Below, one piece after another: positions 265 through 21,592 of a DNA stretch of 64,000 nucleotides. The position numbers and the translations under genes are program-made. Below the pieces are notes generated by a model, which was given only the letters and a program-made list of their open reading frames with translations, was not told where the DNA came from and ran no database searches. Each line of letters opens with the position of its first letter. The stretch's first letter is position 1. This stretch comes from a virus (taxonomy: Duplodnaviria > Caudoviricetes): IMG/VR virus record IMGVR_UViG_3300042260_000337; one strand, given 5' to 3'.

Positions 265-3075
265 TTATATTATTACAACTTCGATTATTTTTTGGGCGTC
301 ACTTGAATCTTCTTGCAAAGATTTTGCAAATACAGCCGCGCCTTTGTCTATTTTTCCAACACTTTTTGCAAATCCAGCAACTTCGCTTGTAACTAATAAA
401 TCGCCCTTTTTTACTGGACCGATAACCTTACACAGAACACGGCCACGCAATGCAATATACGGATGTGTTGAATCTGTTCCAGCTTGTGAGTTCATCTTGA
501 AAGCTGGGTTGCCAGAAATAACACCAGCAACAGAAACATCTTCTTCGGTTGTAGTTGTAGTAATTTCTTTTTCGCCGCCAAACACAACAACAGTTCCGAC
601 TTCATATTCCAAGTCAGATTCGTATCTTTCCGCCAAGTCAGCATAGGTTGCCTCTATAGTTCTACCATACACCGCCCGCCACTGATTGGTAGAAGTTCCC
701 AAGTCATATGTGTTATCTGCATCAACCAATATTGACCCGCTCATCGTTCCACCAGAAATATTCAAATAACTTCCAGTGATACCACCAATAACTTGGTAGC
801 CAACATGGCGAACAATAGTAACTTGACCGTTTGGTAATGGATTTACAAATGATATTGTTGTTCCAGAAACTGTGTAATCACCGCCTGGGGTCTGTGTAAC
901 GCCGTTCATAGTTACGATCAACGCTTCTGGACTTCCTGGAGTTGCAGAAAGTGTGAAATCAGTTTGCGTTCCGTTTCCAGTGAAAACATCTTTCACAACC
1001 GTTGGAACATTCGTTAGATTGTTAAAATGAACAGATGAACTGCCACTGGTTTCTAATTCTGTTCGTAAAATATCAACTCTTGCGTCAGCACGAGAATCAG
1101 TATAATATAGATTTGTAGTCCCCTCTGCTAAGTCATCGGTTGACGATGCAGATAGAGAACCTATGTTCTGATATACAATGCCATCGTTTGTAAATTGCCA
1201 TGTATCGGTAAATTCGTTCCAACGAATTGAAACATCATTTTCTATTCCACGGTTAATTTCTATACCAGAATTTAAAGTTGGATATTCGGTAGGTCCAACA
1301 CCAGCGTTCAAAATTATGATATTATCATTTACAACCAATTCAACGGTGTTGATGAAAGTAGTATTACCAGAAACGGTCAAGTCGCCAGTCAATACCATGT
1401 CAACAAATTCAACAGACGCAGTTGAATCTAACTCTATTACGCCAGTAGTGGAATTGTATGTAACACCATTTGTTGCACTGATGGTTTGTCGTATTTCGCT
1501 TGTTGTAACACTAACATAATCAATCTTATCAGTGAGCGAATTATATGTTAAACTGCCGTATTCAGCGGTGTCATTTATAATATTGCTGATTAGAGTATTG
1601 ACTCTATCGTCAGTGTAATAAAGATTTACAGTTCCTTCTGCCAAATCATCAGTGCTGTTGCCAGATAAGTCGTATCCGCCGTTTGTGAATGAAGAAATGG
1701 TTAACGTGTTTGCAACATCGTTATAAGATAAAGTAATATTGCTTCCAGCAACCAATAACGCCGCAACCCTATCATCAACTCTTTCATTCGTAAAATAAAG
1801 ATTTGTGCCTTCTGCTAAATCACTTGTTGTTTTCAAAGCAAAATCGTTATTGAAATTTACAGATTTGTATGTTGTTACGGATAATACACCAGTAGAAGGA
1901 TTATACGACAAATCACCAGAAACACTTATTGCATTTCTCGCTCGTGTATTAGTAAAATACAGATTAGTGCCTTCTGCTAGATTCGTGGTTGTCTTTGTAG
2001 CAAAATCGTTATTGAAATTTACAGATTTGTATGTTGTTACGGATAATACACCAGTAGAAGGATTATACGACAAGTCGCCAGATACACTTATAGCATCCCT
2101 TGCTCTTGTATTGGTAAAATATAGATTAGTGCCTTCTGTTAAATCTGTCGTAGTATGATTTGAAATACTCGAAACTGTTCCTGTCACGTTTCCGACAAGT
2201 TCGGAATATACAGTGTTTGCTTGGAAGTTGGCCAGTTCAAATGACGGATGGGCAGTGTCTATATATATACTTGTATCTGGTTCTGGTGTATAACCCTGAA
2301 ATATTTTCCATCTTCCATCGGTGGCATCTCGGAAGAATCCAGTATGGTGATATGTTCCATCATTGTAGTTTCCTGCGATTCCTAAGTCTGGATTGGTATT
2401 TGTGCTTCCATCGTTTAAATAAATCAGGTTGTCGGCAATTGCCAAATTTTCAGACGATATTGTAATTGTGGTTCCGCTTACAGTAAGGTTTCCATCAATC
2501 TGAACGTTACCAGTTGCGTTTATGTCATTGAATGTAACATTAGAAGTGTTGGTTAAATCCTGCCCGACTGATATTTCACCGTCAGTAATTGTAACACCAG
2601 TTCCGCCAGTAAAATGAGCGCGAACTTCTGTCGCAGTTGGTCCAGTGTATGTAATTTCGCCAGTTGATGAGTTATATGAAAGTGAACCATCGCCACTCAC
2701 ATCTGTCACTGATATCGCGTTTCTTGCTCGTGCATTTGTGAAGTATAGGTTGGAGGTTCCCTCTGACACATCATCAGATGTCAACACAACATCACCGATT
2801 TGTCCGTTGACACTGCCAACCGAGCCAGTGGCGCTGAAGCTAAGACTTCCATTTATATCGTCATATACAATTGTTATATTCGTATGTGTTCCAGCATTTA
2901 TCAATGCGGCAACGCGGTCATCAATTGAATCAGGAGATACCAGATCAGTAAAATAAAAGTTATATGAAGAATCAATTGCTAAAACTTGGCCGTCAGTTCC
3001 TGGAACCACTTTTAATTTTTCGGCAGTTATACTGTTATTACCTATAACAAATTCGGATACTTGTGTAATAGTCAT
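265..3075 (-). CDS. Tail fiber/appendage-like virion protein with repeated TxDLxEGxNLY(F/Y)T motifs and a C-terminal intramolecular-chaperone (peptidase G2-like) domain
   Basis: 936 aa, Thr/Ser/Asn/Gly-rich. Six copies of the EGTxNLY motif. C-terminal YADLAERY...GTVVVFGG...GDLLVTS domain. Confidence 0.65.
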   Translation of the reverse strand: MTITQVSEFVIGNNSITAEKLKVVPGTDGQVLAIDSSYNFYFTDLVSPDSIDDRVAALINAGTHTNITIVYDDINGSLSFSATGSVGSVNGQIGDVVLTSDDVSEGTSNLYFTNARARNAISVTDVSGDGSLSYNSSTGEITYTGPTATEVRAHFTGGTGVTITDGEISVGQDLTNTSNVTFNDINATGNVQIDGNLTVSGTTITISSENLAIADNLIYLNDGSTNTNPDLGIAGNYNDGTYHHTGFFRDATDGRWKIFQGYTPEPDTSIYIDTAHPSFELANFQANTVYSELVGNVTGTVSSISNHTTTDLTEGTNLYFTNTRARDAISVSGDLSYNPSTGVLSVTTYKSVNFNNDFATKTTTNLAEGTNLYFTNTRARNAISVSGDLSYNPSTGVLSVTTYKSVNFNNDFALKTTSDLAEGTNLYFTNERVDDRVAALLVAGSNITLSYNDVANTLTISSFTNGGYDLSGNSTDDLAEGTVNLYYTDDRVNTLISNIINDTAEYGSLTYNSLTDKIDYVSVTTSEIRQTISATNGVTYNSTTGVIELDSTASVEFVDMVLTGDLTVSGNTTFINTVELVVNDNIIILNAGVGPTEYPTLNSGIEINRGIENDVSIRWNEFTDTWQFTNDGIVYQNIGSLSASSTDDLAEGTTNLYYTDSRADARVDILRTELETSGSSSVHFNNLTNVPTVVKDVFTGNGTQTDFTLSATPGSPEALIVTMNGVTQTPGGDYTVSGTTISFVNPLPNGQVTIVRHVGYQVIGGITGSYLNISGGTMSGSILVDADNTYDLGTSTNQWRAVYGRTIEATYADLAERYESDLEYEVGTVVVFGGEKEITTTTTEEDVSVAGVISGNPAFKMNSQAGTDSTHPYIALRGRVLCKVIGPVKKGDLLVTSEVAGFAKSVGKIDKGAAVFAKSLQEDSSDAQKIIEVVII
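1802..2135 (-). repeat. 162-nt (54-aa) tandem duplication inside the fiber gene
   Basis: 1837-1911 is identical to 1999-2073 (75 nt, offset 162). The flanking codons have diverged, mostly synonymously. Confidence 0.95.
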
Positions 3076-5350: not shown

Positions 5351-6508
5351 TTATACGAATGATAGGTTTGCAACGTTGATCTTTGATAGATAGTCTGCTG
5401 CGTTACCTAGAGATGAAGCGGTGTTGGTTAGTTCAACATATCCGTAACGAGTCATGAAGGACACGACTGGTTCGAAGGTTGATGGGTCAACCACAACGCC
5501 TGATGACATTAGAGGAACGTATGGGCAGTAGAACGCTGCTGCGTCGATCTCGCCCTGACCCTTGTAACCTAGTAGAACTGGTGCGGTGTCTGATGCGTAG
5601 GTGTTGACGTAAACGCGCATTGTGCCGTTTAGAGTTCCAACAAACTTGGTGTTGGTTGGTGCTTCAAATGTGCCTTCGGTTGTACGAGCGAATGCTGAAG
5701 TGGTAGCTGACTGTAGAACAGTTAGTGCTGCTGGTGAGATAACTGCCCAGTTAGCTGCGCCACGACGAGTGCGCTGTGCAACTAGGTTTGCTTGCTGGTT
5801 GATTAGTGTTGCTAGAACAGCGTGACGATCACCAACGAAGTGTGGGGTGCCTGTGAAGGTGCCGTTCATGTCGTAGGTTGCGCCTAGTGTTGCTAGGTTG
5901 GTTAGTGAGCCAAGGATTTCCTGGTCGATTTCAGCGGTGATTTCCATCGCTAGAGCCGCCATGATTTCTGCTTCGATGTCTAGACCGTGCATTGCGTTAG
6001 CATCTTGTGCTGCTTCAAAAGTCCAACGTGCTGATAGCTTACGTGTTTTAGCTTCAACAGTTTGCTTTAGGACTTGAATTGACATACGGTTACCAGCTAC
6101 ACCTTCTAGGTTTGCAGTTGGTAGAGGTGCGGTTGTGCCGTTACCTGAGTATGCAGTTGCAATGTTGAATGGTGATAGTGCTTCTGAACCAGCGGTTGTA
6201 GCACCAGCGTTGTCTGCGTAACGAACACGTAGAGTGTGGATTTGGCCTACTGGACCAGTCATTGGCTGAACGCCGATGATTTCGTTAGCAATAACGGTTG
6301 GCATAACACGGCGAATAACTGGTAGAATTACTTTGTTTAGAGTAGCAATGTTACCTGCCTGAGTTGCACCTGCGGTTGCACTTTCATTTAGTGCTTTCTT
6401 TGTGTTTTCTAGAACTGATGACATTACATCGCGCTTGGTTCCGACTAGACCTTCTAGTAGTGCTTCGCGTGTCGCGTTCCAGTTTTTACCTTCAAAAAGA
6501 TTTTCCAT
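5351..6508 (-). CDS. gp23: Major capsid protein, T4 gp23-like
   Basis: VQPMTGPVGQIHTLR, RKLSARWTFEAAQD, EITAEIDQEI, AFYCPYVPL and FMTRYG motifs. Strongly biased codon usage. Follows scaffold and protease. Confidence 0.97.
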   Translation of the reverse strand: MENLFEGKNWNATREALLEGLVGTKRDVMSSVLENTKKALNESATAGATQAGNIATLNKVILPVIRRVMPTVIANEIIGVQPMTGPVGQIHTLRVRYADNAGATTAGSEALSPFNIATAYSGNGTTAPLPTANLEGVAGNRMSIQVLKQTVEAKTRKLSARWTFEAAQDANAMHGLDIEAEIMAALAMEITAEIDQEILGSLTNLATLGATYDMNGTFTGTPHFVGDRHAVLATLINQQANLVAQRTRRGAANWAVISPAALTVLQSATTSAFARTTEGTFEAPTNTKFVGTLNGTMRVYVNTYASDTAPVLLGYKGQGEIDAAAFYCPYVPLMSSGVVVDPSTFEPVVSFMTRYGYVELTNTASSLGNAADYLSKINVANLSFV

Positions 6509-17872: not shown

Positions 17873-19002
17873 TCTGTTCTGATTTCGTCAAAACCCCAAT
17901 CAATTGCGACTGGAAATCTGGGTATACCATCAGGTGTGTAATCAAAAAACCTGATGGTTGCCCATTTTGGTTTTGTCGGATTGTCGTAAAGGTCTTTCAG
18001 AAGTTCTTGATTTCCTCTTACGCCCGATCCAAACGGCTTGCCGTCTTTGTTTTCCAGAACAAACCGCTTGGCATGACCAGCCCAATTTCCAAGACCTTCT
18101 TCAATGCCAGTAACTTTGAACTCGTCTGTCTTGAACTCTTTTCGTTTGATTAGATTATGAGAACGCTTGTTTTCATATTCCTTGTTACGACGAATCATCT
18201 GTCCCTCATATCCATCTTCAATATATGCGGCATATAGGCTGTTCATATGGTCTTCATCAAGAATCATAAATGTTTCTACCTTTACAACGCATTCAGTCTT
18301 CGGTAGTAGTTTGAGGTATCTCTTGCTTCGTTCTTCAAATATCAAATCTTCTTCCACGCAATCAATAACGTCATAGATATGATATTCAATTAGCTTCTTT
18401 GAAATTTCAATGTCTTTTGGGGTAGGCTTTGTCTTTCTTACGATTGACGTAATCTTGTTGAAGTTTGTCTTCAGTTTGTGATTGTAAAGTTCGCCATCAA
18501 ACGTCAGATTTGGATGGTCAACAAATACATCCTTGATTGCTTCCCAGACGTGTGGAACGGATGTAATCTCTTTACCAGAACGAGTCCATAGCCCATCGGC
18601 CCTTGCGATACAGCGAATGCCATCCAGCTTTGGCTGCGAGTATAGCTTATCTTCCTCTGTGTTTATTTTTTCGTCGGCAAAGCCTTGAGCCAACATTGGA
18701 TTAAACGTAGTCTTTGTATTGACTTCATCTACGTTTTCAAAGTAGCCAGAGTTCTTCTTGTTGGTGTAGTTGGCTACGATTTCTTTTTCAGCTTGTGAAC
18801 GAATGGTAGTCGCGTTTGATTTTCCAGTATTCTTTGGAACACATTTATGCCAAGATGATGTAACTAAGTTTCCGCCACGAATACCAGAAACAGTTCGGTA
18901 TCCAGCCGTATCTTCACCTTCTCCAAGTTCCATATACCATATTCGTATATTCTGTGAACTGTCAATCTTGAACAATGGTTCGTAAGTTTTTATGAGTTGC
19001 AT
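17869..19002 (-). CDS. lig: ATP-dependent DNA ligase
   Basis: Motif I QPKLDGIRC, FDGELY, YHIYD, EGQMIR, KRSHNLIKRK, RFP. N-terminal WGR-like extension. Confidence 0.93.
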   Translation of the reverse strand: MQLIKTYEPLFKIDSSQNIRIWYMELGEGEDTAGYRTVSGIRGGNLVTSSWHKCVPKNTGKSNATTIRSQAEKEIVANYTNKKNSGYFENVDEVNTKTTFNPMLAQGFADEKINTEEDKLYSQPKLDGIRCIARADGLWTRSGKEITSVPHVWEAIKDVFVDHPNLTFDGELYNHKLKTNFNKITSIVRKTKPTPKDIEISKKLIEYHIYDVIDCVEEDLIFEERSKRYLKLLPKTECVVKVETFMILDEDHMNSLYAAYIEDGYEGQMIRRNKEYENKRSHNLIKRKEFKTDEFKVTGIEEGLGNWAGHAKRFVLENKDGKPFGSGVRGNQELLKDLYDNPTKPKWATIRFFDYTPDGIPRFPVAIDWGFDEIRTD

Positions 19003-19020: not shown

Positions 19021-19049
19021 ATTATACTGAATAGTTCACGGACTGTCAA
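19021..19049 (-). promoter_or_regulatory. Perfect sigma70 consensus promoter for the ligase gene
   Basis: TTGACA-gtccgtgaactattcag (17 nt)-TATAAT. Confidence 0.9.
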
Positions 19050-19078
19050 TAAAAAAGGCTCCACATATGTGGAGCCTT
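19050..19078 (-). terminator. Rho-independent terminator
   Basis: AAGGCTCCAC-ATAT-GTGGAGCCTT then TTTT: perfect 10-bp stem. Confidence 0.9.
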
Positions 19079-19154
19079 AGTTTTCTCGTATGAGATATTA
19101 AGGAAGCCTCGCTGAGATGAGAGAGGTTGAGAGGAGACACAGGACTTCCCTAAT
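19050..19154 (-). ncRNA. Candidate ~105-nt small RNA with a CU-rich loop
   Basis: Has its own promoter (19161-19189) and terminator (19050-19078) and no ATG-initiated ORF. 12-bp stem 19154-19143/19108-19097 encloses CTGTGTCTCCTCTCAACCTCTCTCATCTCAGCGA. Confidence 0.7.
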
Positions 19155-19160
19155 GTTTAT

Positions 19161-19189
19161 AGAATATCAAATACGAATCATATTGTCAA
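19161..19189 (-). promoter_or_regulatory. sigma70-type promoter of the candidate sRNA
   Basis: TTGACA-17 nt-TATTCT with extended TG. Predicted +1 at about 19154, the first base of the stem. Confidence 0.75.
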
Positions 19190-19205
19190 GAACTTTTTTC
19201 ATATT

Positions 19206-20999
19206 TTATGCAAATATTTCAGATTCTTCTGTCGCAATAACTTCTTCTTCTTGACTAAATGATGTGAACCCATTCTCTTTCACAACATTCAATACGTTGG
19301 AAACCCGCCCTTGAAGTTCGTCTCTATGTGAAACCAAGAAAATTGTCCGATTACTTTCTCTTACCATTTTCTTTAGAACTGACAATGATGCTTCTACGCC
19401 GTTTGTATCCATACCACTATCAATCAACTCATCTACAAACAGAACATTGATGGTGCTGTATAGTGACTCGAAGATATCTCTGAACGCCCATGACAAGCCA
19501 AGGATAAGTCGGTTTCGTTCACCACGTGACAGGTTATCAAAGTCAAGGTCTCTACCGAGTTCTTTGATTTCAACACTCAAATCGCTCTGGAACCGAACTT
19601 CATGTGGCAAACCAAGTTTTTCAAGGAAGAAATCAAGACGAGAATTTAGATAGTTTAGGTTTTGGTCAATGATTTTCTTGCGAATAAAGCTATCTTTGTT
19701 GGTAAGTAGTTTCAAAAGAAATTCTTGATGGTCCTTGAACGAAATGAGAGAGTTCATCTTATCGTAACTGATTTCTTCAAGTGAATTAGACTTCATTTCT
19801 TCAATCTGTTCTTGATACGGGTCAGTGGTTTCTTTCTTTCGTTGTATCTGGTCAGTCACCGATGTTACCAAGTTCTGATGCTCATATGCATCTTGAATTG
19901 ATTTGTAGTATACTGATGGCTTTACTCCAATATCACCAATGCTTGCCACCAATTCCTGATGCTCTTGAAGTTGACTTTCGTTAGCAAGAATTTGCATCAC
20001 GGCTTCTTGCTTTTGGCCAGTCTTTGACTTTAGAATTTCTTCTTGTTTGTTATCATGTAGGTCTTGACCACACGCATAACATGTGTGTGACTTGAGTGCA
20101 TCTATTTCAATATCAAGTTTATTGATAAATGTGTTCTGTTTGTCAATATCTTTGTTGAGATTTGTAATCCATAGATTAGCTTGGTCAAGTTTTGTTTTCT
20201 TTTCGTTATACTCTACAAGTTTAGAATGATTTTCAATTTCAGTTGTAATGTCTATATGTGATAGGTCATTTAACTGTTTTGTCAGAGTTTCAACGTCAGA
20301 ATCAATATTCTTTTTCCATACTCTCTGTCTACGTTCAATGTCTTCAATTGACTTTAGAATACGTTTGTTGGCTTCTTCTTTCGCCTTGATTTCATATTCT
20401 TCATCTTTGATGAAATCTTTGGTCTGTTTGATTTGTTCTCTCAGGGATTCTGCTTTCTTTGAAAGTTCAGTGATACCGAGAAGTTCTTCAATTATTTCAC
20501 GTTGGTCTGCCGCCCGCATAGACAAGAACGGTTCAGTGTATGTATTCAATGCAACGATATGCTTGAACATTGAATGCGAAATGCCGATAATTTGGTCTAC
20601 CTCAACTTGAGTGTGTCGGTTTTCACCCTGTGCTTCATCTTGACCTTCATTTAGGTCAATACCGTTTCTTTTAAGACGAAACACGGCTGGCCTTCTACCA
20701 CGCTCAATACGGTATTGTTCTCCATTGTATTCGAAATCAACTGTAACCAACATCTGCTTTCCGTTAGTTTTGTTGATTAGGTTATCTTGTTTGATTTTGG
20801 TTAGAGCATTTCCGTATAGCCCATAGCTAAGAGCGTTGATAAGAGTAGTTTTGCCTGTTCCGTTTCTTGCTCCATCTCCACCCAAATCAAGGTTGTTACC
20901 TAGAACGAGTGTGAGGTTGTTACGGTTTAGTGTTACGGCTTGTGTTACGTTTCCAATGCTCATGAAATTTCGCATTGTGATGTTATGAATTCTCAGCAT
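19206..20999 (-). CDS. gp46: Recombination endonuclease ATPase subunit, gp46/SbcC/Rad50-like
   Basis: Walker A NGTGKT, zinc hook CYAC, signature LSRGE, Walker B LFVDE, VSH. Confidence 0.97.
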   Translation of the reverse strand: MLRIHNITMRNFMSIGNVTQAVTLNRNNLTLVLGNNLDLGGDGARNGTGKTTLINALSYGLYGNALTKIKQDNLINKTNGKQMLVTVDFEYNGEQYRIERGRRPAVFRLKRNGIDLNEGQDEAQGENRHTQVEVDQIIGISHSMFKHIVALNTYTEPFLSMRAADQREIIEELLGITELSKKAESLREQIKQTKDFIKDEEYEIKAKEEANKRILKSIEDIERRQRVWKKNIDSDVETLTKQLNDLSHIDITTEIENHSKLVEYNEKKTKLDQANLWITNLNKDIDKQNTFINKLDIEIDALKSHTCYACGQDLHDNKQEEILKSKTGQKQEAVMQILANESQLQEHQELVASIGDIGVKPSVYYKSIQDAYEHQNLVTSVTDQIQRKKETTDPYQEQIEEMKSNSLEEISYDKMNSLISFKDHQEFLLKLLTNKDSFIRKKIIDQNLNYLNSRLDFFLEKLGLPHEVRFQSDLSVEIKELGRDLDFDNLSRGERNRLILGLSWAFRDIFESLYSTINVLFVDELIDSGMDTNGVEASLSVLKKMVRESNRTIFLVSHRDELQGRVSNVLNVVKENGFTSFSQEEEVIATEESEIFA

Positions 21000-21592
21000 T
21001 ATCTCTCTCTTGCAAACTGACCTGATTGAATCGGGTCAAGACTTATCTCATTAATGTTTACGTATTCTGGTTGATTTAGAAGCCATACTATTAGTTCAGC
21101 TATATACGATGTATCCAAAAGTTTTCTATCTGGATGTTTTTTCATGACACTTTCGGTTGTAAGACTTCCTGGTGAAATGAGCGTAGTTTTTATATTACTA
21201 CCGCCTATTGTAGCATAACTTAGGTTACGATTGAAGTCTTTTATTGACTTCTTTTCGATAGGATATCTCCATGCAGAACCCCTTACGCCAGTGTCGGCAG
21301 TTGAACCAATATGAATGAAGTATGCAGATTTTTGTGCTTCTGCCACTGTGTTATACATAGTTTCAGCTAAAAGGGTCTGGTTGAATTTCCATAGTGCCGA
21401 GTTGTTTATGAACACATCGTAAGACTGTTCCACAAATTCATTGGCAAGTTTTTGATGGTTGTTATTATCGCAAAGATCGTATCCGGTGGAACGACTAACA
21501 GTGCGATAAACAACGCTATCCATAGTATCAAAAAGATCACATATTTTTTGGCAAAGCCCATACTCACGGTTTCCTGTAATCAGTATTTTCAT
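20999..21592 (-). CDS. Short-chain dehydrogenase/reductase inserted between gp47 and gp46
   Basis: ILITGNREYGL, DVFINNS, HIGS, YPIEK (YxxxK), ISPG. Confidence 0.8.
   Translation of the reverse strand: MKILITGNREYGLCQKICDLFDTMDSVVYRTVSRSTGYDLCDNNNHQKLANEFVEQSYDVFINNSALWKFNQTLLAETMYNTVAEAQKSAYFIHIGSTADTGVRGSAWRYPIEKKSIKDFNRNLSYATIGGSNIKTTLISPGSLTTESVMKKHPDRKLLDTSYIAELIVWLLNQPEYVNINEISLDPIQSGQFARER

Follow-up and report, generated by a model that had tools for sequence, protein, structure and literature searches.

The window, a stretch of 64,000 nucleotides of DNA, comes from an uncultured jumbo myovirus carrying genes for a portal, a major head protein, a late sigma factor and SbcCD. On its minus strand, a gp46-like recombination gene is followed by a short intergenic region and an ATP-dependent DNA ligase gene. 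The original prediction had placed in this region a self-contained sRNA gene whose loop resembles an anti-Shine-Dalgarno sequence. Features were located by promoter and terminator scans and by folding, and are listed in order of transcription:

19206-20999, minus strand: gp46/SbcC-like open reading frame (ORF) of 597 aa, a recombination nuclease ATPase (Pfam AAA_23)
19208-19206, minus strand: TAA stop codon of the gp46-like ORF
19161-19200, minus strand: putative sRNA promoter (promoter scan 10/12, plus an extended -10 TG)
19199-19194, minus strand: A-tract of the sRNA promoter
19189-19184, minus strand: -35 hexamer of the sRNA promoter, TTGACA
19169-19168, minus strand: extended -10 TG, in a spacer of 17 nt that ends in TGa
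19166-19161, minus strand: -10 hexamer of the sRNA promoter, TATTCT
about 19154, minus strand: predicted +1, the first base of stem 1, seven bases past the -10 hexamer
19097-19154, minus strand: stem-loop 1 (minimum free energy and centroid folds)
19154-19143 with 19108-19097, minus strand: stem 1, 12 bp including two G-U pairs
19142-19109, minus strand: loop of stem-loop 1, 34 nt, containing GUCUCCUCUC and CCUCUCUC
19118-19140, minus strand: loop core of 23 nt, GUGUCUCCUCUCAACCUCUCUCA, the presumed seed or binding surface
19084-19095, minus strand: stem-loop 2, UCUC-AUAC-GAGA, 4 bp (fold)
19048-19078, minus strand: intrinsic terminator (terminator scan)
19078-19055, minus strand: terminator stem, a perfect 10 bp with a 4-nt loop
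to about 19051, minus strand: U run, which begins within the terminator stem
19021-19049, minus strand: ligase-gene promoter, TTGACA-17-TATAAT (promoter scan 12/12)
17869-19002, minus strand: ATP-dependent DNA ligase gene (domains PF01068 and PF14743)

The promoter, +1, stem, loop and terminator that had been described were all recovered at their minus-strand positions, and the description was accurate throughout. In the window, 16 nt separate the gp46 stop codon from the sRNA promoter. No terminator was found between gp46 and the sRNA in the window, and a gp46 mRNA formed by read-through would therefore end here and carry the loop. At the other end of the unit, the last U's of the sRNA terminator overlap the -35 hexamer region of the ligase promoter. 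The predicted RNA is about 105 nt long and folds at -35.9 kcal/mol (z = -4.8), a value that 0 of 200 dinucleotide shuffles attained. The loop is composed almost exclusively of C, U and A. Its core consists of two tandem CUCUC(UC)A(A/U)C units, and the motif occurs once within the window where 0 occurrences are expected.

Related loci (80 in number) were retrieved from IMG/VR by gp46 protein, and recognizable homologues of a 160-nt region were found downstream of gp46 in the closest of these. An 18-base loop pattern was present in 49 stretches of IMG/VR, two of which are chance hits. A covariance model was built from 18 sequences using a hand-checked structure. A search for homologues with a conserved loop had been proposed as a check on the sRNA, and the model returned 34 matches in IMG/VR contigs, 33 of them distinct and each located downstream of a gp46 homologue. 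With this model, the score of the window is 79.4 bits (E about 1e-14), and some of the matches form a second subfamily, in which the loop has diverged. Exactly one strong match was found in each of five long relative contigs, one being a complete genome of 342,607 bp (342.6 kb) with terminal repeats and another being 92% complete, and the window also has one. In the sRNA-bearing lineages the gp46 protein is about 66-74% identical to that of the window; members of a gp46 clade with 54-59% identity, as well as locus L035, are without the RNA at this position.

A promoter, three hairpins and a terminator are present in all homologues. Covariation was scored on the alignment fitted to the covariance model, and single-sequence folds served as an independent check. 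Standard pairs occupy 89.5% of cells, a share that drops to 40-50% if the 3' partners are shifted by 1-3 columns. Changes on both sides were observed in all 21 modeled pairs among the 33 homologues (12 in stem 1, 3 in stem 2 and 6 in the terminator, where 97.5% of cells are paired), and 0 of 500 shuffles matched the observed covariation values. Stem 2, which is UCUC/GAGA in the window, reads GUUUCA/UGAAAC, UCUCUG/CAGAGA or UUCCCUAU/AUAGGGAA in relatives. The same three hairpins were obtained by single-sequence folding in nearly every homologue.

In subfamily 1, the core is near-invariant while the stems vary freely. Core variants carry an extra UC (L001, L002 and L008, whose loops contain perfect direct repeats, two copies of CUCUCUCAAC), lack one A (L023), have a second run that is short by one UC unit (L004) or are otherwise variant (L036); the spacing of the repeats is fixed. 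The loop of subfamily 2 is cut down to CCUCUCAAC-UCUCA, and that of L020 retains only UUCUCUCUAAC. The loop, including the 23-nt core, is predicted to be unpaired in nearly all homologues, with mean probabilities of 0.85-1.0, as would suit a conserved single-stranded seed.

A sigma70-type promoter is kept in all 30 distinct upstream regions examined. Of these, 29 fit a pattern of TTGACA (26) or TTGACT (3), a spacer of 17 nt (26) or 18 nt (3) and a TAnnnT -10 hexamer; L036 has TTGACA-17-GATAAT. The TGn preceding the -10 hexamer and the upstream A-tract are visible in the listed homologue promoters, and the spacer sequences diverge. Conserved elements on either side of a drifting spacer indicate a functional sigma70-type promoter, probably of the strong early class. 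Note that early timing is predicted solely from this promoter type.

The absence of an ORF, another part of the original prediction, also held up. The lone frame is a GTG-started one of 34 codons that begins in the loop. It is without a Shine-Dalgarno sequence (SD), stops at variable points, is absent from subfamily 2 and is shifted by 1- and 2-nt indels in L001, L002, L008, L023 and L036. Because the frame is broken or missing across relatives, the element is taken to be non-coding, and a small-peptide reading was rejected. Enclosed by its own putative promoter and a predicted Rho-independent terminator with a U tail, this short non-coding unit has the layout of an sRNA gene. It had been considered that the region might be only the gp46 3'-UTR. 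In many relatives, though, gp46 and the sRNA promoter are separated by about 250 nt or more, which argues that the RNA is not merely a 3'-UTR. Examples of gaps in the range of ~250-700 nt, all on the plus strand, are L011:4750-5010, L030:4762-5056 and L029:4777-5470. The flanking region is plastic and the RNA itself is retained.

The conserved promoter, three covarying hairpins, unpaired near-invariant loop and single copy per genome thus lend strong comparative support to the claim of a self-contained sRNA gene. Judged from these sequences, the gene is very probably real and not a product of chance, about 105 nt long and maintained by one clade of aquatic, uncultured jumbo phages.

The family is uncatalogued as judged against Rfam 15, cultured phages and bacterial genomes. 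No Rfam 15 family, C4 antisense RNA and STnc100 included, was matched at its gathering threshold, and the alphaproteobacterial cuckoo/alpha-r14 and AbcR families did not appear even to an E value of 10. The best scores were 27.6 bits for Phe_leader (threshold 55), 23.2 for STnc100 (47) and 21.3 for a toxic sRNA (50), and the sub-threshold hits fall mostly at the terminator end of the unit. The cultured phages closest by gp46 are Pseudomonas phage PA5oct (49%; match annotated “recombination endonuclease subunit”) and Agrobacterium phage Atu_ph07 (47%). Cultured phages showed no DNA similarity to an 801-nt query that covers the RNA, and the PA5oct and Atu_ph07 genomes gave terminator-like model hits only and no RNA. 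When 185,579 species genomes of bacteria and archaea were searched, the 18-base loop pattern was found in 49 stretches scattered over many phyla. These were rejected as bacterial homologues, as they give only weak partial model hits (E 0.15 or worse) that were taken as chance. The family may already be present as an unnamed entry in a catalogue of 8,495 candidate structured RNAs from IMG/VR (PMC10690425).

In 30 of the 33 variants, the next gene encodes a conserved basic protein of 55-66 aa with the motif FLKKGGKI...PEG...MKYKFRR. Its score of 28.7 bits against the Pfam SutA RNAP-binding domain (SutA-RBD) is below the 29.3-bit cut-off, and the protein may be an early phage RNA-polymerase-binding factor. 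Examples of this ORF, including the one in the full-length relative G001, are as follows:

L030, 5226-5417, plus strand: small SutA-like ORF
L019, 5158-5346, plus strand: small SutA-like ORF
L021, 2568-2756, plus strand: small SutA-like ORF
G001, 285782-285612, minus strand: small SutA-like ORF

In subfamily 1, the small ORF starts 11-40 nt past the terminator with no intervening promoter, so that it would be transcribed only via terminator read-through or from further upstream. In subfamily 2, a separate promoter serves the small ORF. The window and G001 have a ligase gene with its own promoter next; the small gene of G001 lies just beyond the ligase, and no homologue of it was found in the window. 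Retention of the sRNA across three downstream arrangements suggests that it has a function of its own. For subfamily 1, the same data keep alive a different reading, in which the unit is a cis-acting leader or read-through element of the downstream early gene or genes and the terminated 105-nt RNA is the default product. A factor acting on the CU-rich loop, either by antitermination of the nut or put type or as an attenuator protein, would then permit read-through.

Like the lambda nut and HK022 put sites, the unit is located between an early promoter, which it follows directly, and a terminator, and this reading would also account for the small ORF that follows the terminator in 30 of the 33 variants and is promoterless in subfamily 1. 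There is a faint likeness between the tandem CUCUC-AAC units and boxA (CUCUUUAACAA), but it is short and imperfect. Moreover, the element and its loop are kept in subfamily 2, the window and G001, all of which supply the next gene with a promoter of its own, and also where that gene is the ligase, including the window, which has no recognizable small ORF. Inspection of the folds revealed no conserved alternative in which upstream sequence would pair with the terminator arms, which covary freely, and the start region of the small ORF is less complementary to the loop than the average start region. We consider a role in cis to be unlikely.

The unit could also be devoid of function. T4-type phages are rich in cassettes that combine a strong sigma70 promoter with a stem-loop (PMC2839356). 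Such promoter-early stem-loop (PeSL) elements number about 50 per T4-type genome, preferentially precede ORFans and comprise a sigma70-like promoter with AT-rich sequence upstream, a stem-loop in or next to the promoter, and an SD with its start codon directly behind (Arbiol et al. 2010; PMC2839356). The sRNA gene resembles them in its strong sigma70-like promoter, A-tract, terminator hairpin and intergenic location, and might be an empty cassette of this type, or a mere gp46 terminator left behind after loss of the small ORF; the plasticity of the region, seen in the long gaps that many relatives have after gp46, would agree with this. However, the PeSL layout fits only the junction at which the sRNA terminator adjoins the ligase promoter (window 19021-19078, minus strand). 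PeSLs are repeated about 50 times and, being defined by promoter and hairpin, lack a conserved RNA body of their own, whereas the sRNA is present once in the window and once in each of the five long contigs, two of which are 92-100% complete. Its hairpins are downstream of the +1, in a covarying RNA body of ~105 nt with a near-invariant loop and without a conserved ORF. Neither that loop nor two covarying hairpins upstream of the terminator would be expected of a relic, and recent spread of an identical cassette is unlikely to explain loop conservation given the diverged stems and flanks. The probability of a functionless cassette is therefore considered very small.

The function that we favor, with a probability of roughly one in two, is that the ~105-nt RNA pairs in trans with GA-rich ribosome-binding sites. 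The transcription, timing, pairing, targets and effect that we infer are as follows. Transcription of the sRNA would start early, at its host-sigma70-type promoter, and stop at the intrinsic terminator of the unit. Its working part would be the apical loop of stem-loop 1, which is large, predicted to be unpaired and holds two tandem CUCUC(UC)AAC-type units. This loop would base-pair in trans with purine-rich SDs (GAGAGG/AGGAGA-type) of host mRNAs, phage mRNAs or both, and the pairing would block 30S binding, possibly with recruitment of RNase E or Hfq. A gp46 read-through mRNA would also carry the loop, as an icaR-like 3'-UTR.

The SD types that are common in these phages are AAGGAG, AGGAGA, AGAGGA and AAGAGA. 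The loop is complementary to them, which makes anti-SD action chemically plausible, and to this extent the proposed occlusion of SDs stands. Start regions, by contrast, favor the real loop no more than they favor shuffled CU-rich loops. For sets of 55, 446 and 448 ORFs, the mean duplex energy with start regions was -9.6 to -10.0 kcal/mol, compared to -8.8 to -9.3 kcal/mol for shuffled loops, and the number of start-region duplexes at or below -12 kcal/mol was inside the shuffled-loop range, giving no global enrichment. The phage genomes contain few exact loop complements of at least 9 nt. No conserved long target was found in these genomes, and the 185,579 species genomes contained no 18-nt complement beyond chance-like scatter. 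A phage regulon was sought using exact complements, duplex energies relative to shuffles and an orthologue ranking across two genomes; nothing significant emerged, and it was set aside. Pairing with the start of the small SutA-like ORF was also rejected, being below average (median background fraction 0.77). The main targets could possibly lie in the host.

The longest matches are two of 13 nt, both unconserved, one in the full-length relative G002 and one inside a coding region of G001. In G002, an ORF for a 196-aa signal-peptide protein (L148:4132-4735, minus strand) has AGAGGAGACACUU directly before its ATG, a perfect 13-nt complement to the sRNA loop of G002 itself, including its lineage-specific flank. 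No orthologue of this ORF was found in five related contigs, and the match may be due to chance or may mark a lineage-specific target.

Within the phage, the best candidate for pairing appears to be the gp46 start region, although it is statistically weak. In most sRNA-bearing phages this region contains GCAAGAGAGAGGUA, then 7-9 nt and a weak UUG start, and can pair perfectly over 9 nt with ACCUCUCUC in the loop. In the window it contains AGAGAGAGAUA followed by AUG (about 21012-21002, minus strand), a 7-nt match. The GAGAGAG that had been noted before the gp46 ATG is thus present, but 7-nt matches are within chance, as the original prediction had itself warned. The region ranks 4/446 by complementarity in G002, 22/448 in G001 and 6/55 in the window, and comes out close to the top among 237 orthologue pairs. 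In relatives without the RNA, the gp46 start regions are unrelated, have an AUG start and are without the motif; L023 has the sRNA and is missing the gp46 pairing motif. The correlation of motif and RNA amounts to one phylogenetic event, and the motif doubles as an ordinary strong SD and as the ARER-stop codons of an upstream 197-aa ORF. Because GCAAGAGAGAGGUA also encodes this ARER-stop end, gp46 and the upstream ORF are probably translationally coupled. The gp46 start codon is ATG in the window (20990-21015, minus strand), TTG in nearly all close relatives and GTG in L036. The start sites of the relatives are at position ~2960-3006 of loci L001-L036.

A core that is near-invariant over 23 nt is more constrained than generic anti-SD pairing would need, and leaves room for a specific partner, either a host RNA or a protein. 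The RNA could accordingly be a protein decoy or sponge, with its pyrimidine units titrating an RNA-binding protein of the host or the phage. Possible ligands would include a phage translational regulator, a cold-shock protein, ribosomal protein S1 and Rho; the last two favor C/U-rich single strands, and Rho binds YC dinucleotides. Two direct repeats at a fixed spacing, a core more conserved than SD pairing would require, a strong extended -10 promoter suggestive of high abundance and the want of a convincing conserved RNA target would all be consistent with a decoy. Set against this, no candidate protein of matching specificity was found and no evident RNA-binding protein is encoded in the neighborhood; known sponges (CsrB, RsmZ and 6S) have many more sites or a different architecture. 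In addition, subfamily 2 and L020 keep only the CU-repeat character, which degenerate base pairing fits at least as well. We regard a decoy as distinctly unlikely.

Less probable still is that the RNA acts in bulk as an abundant mimic of the 16S rRNA 3' end (an “SD sponge”) or, alternatively, that its loop titrates a global factor such as Rho. As an SD sponge, it would be produced in quantity from the strong early promoter, and its two CU units would soak up purine-rich SD leaders. If so, SD-led translation, mostly of host and early-phage messages, would be damped, and phage messages needing little or no SD would be favored.

The preferred reading, silencing of ribosome-binding sites in trans, has counterparts in bacteria. 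The cuckoo/alpha-r14 sRNAs (CcsR1-4 of Rhodobacter and NfeR1 of Sinorhizobium) and AbcR1/2 have their own promoters and intrinsic terminators, and carry C/U-rich, anti-SD-like loop motifs, often repeated, with which they repress translation at ribosome-binding sites. The phage sRNA is like them in its putative promoter, predicted terminator and CU-rich loop, and a probable alphaproteobacterial host would fit. It differs in that it has no sequence or structure match to them (Rfam), is phage-encoded and is single-copy. Its motif alternates CUCUC-AAC, as opposed to the CCUCCUCCC of alphaproteobacterial anti-SD sRNAs, and, unlike in those RNAs, both CU motifs are inside one 34-nt loop.

The host is probably an alphaproteobacterium, as suggested by the alpha-type tmRNA of relatives and by kinship to Agrobacterium and Sinorhizobium phages; this is a pointer and not a proof. 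Permuted alpha_tmRNA (RF01849) was detected in two full-length relatives at 122.6 and 91.7 bits, and 10-28 tRNAs are present in full-length relatives:

L162 (G002), 1167-1489, plus strand: permuted tmRNA with tag ANDNYQPEMAMAA
L175 (G001), 5986-6380, minus strand: permuted tmRNA with tag ANTNAAPAMAKLAA

When these tmRNAs were compared with 401 Pseudomonadota genomes by BLAST, only the universal 36-nt core was matched.

Other known RNAs are more distant. The C-rich loops of RNAIII are alike in principle, but the sRNA is not a member of that group. As in the icaR 3'-UTR of Staphylococcus aureus (anti-SD UCCCCUG), a downstream pyrimidine motif could pair with the SD of its own gene. Unlike the icaR 3'-UTR, the sRNA has its own conserved promoter and in many relatives lies well away from gp46, and its complementarity to gp46 is short (7 nt in the window and 9 nt in relatives) and falls in a generic SD. 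Cyanobacterial Yfr1 has an ultraconserved, unpaired, pyrimidine-rich seed, ACUCCUCACAC, flanked by variable stems. The phage sRNA likewise has a conserved unpaired pyrimidine motif beside variable stems, but the motif is in a loop here and between two hairpins in Yfr1; sequence, host group and genomic origin also differ, and there is no Rfam match.

Strictly lytic phages have few known regulatory RNAs, and for jumbo phages that infect environmental bacteria there are hardly any. Comparative data alone here define a clean RNA gene that is single-copy and syntenic in its clade. If it does silence ribosome-binding sites, these phages would have in it their own counterpart to the alphaproteobacterial anti-SD sRNAs and a compact tool for early control of translation, either of the host or of their own messages.
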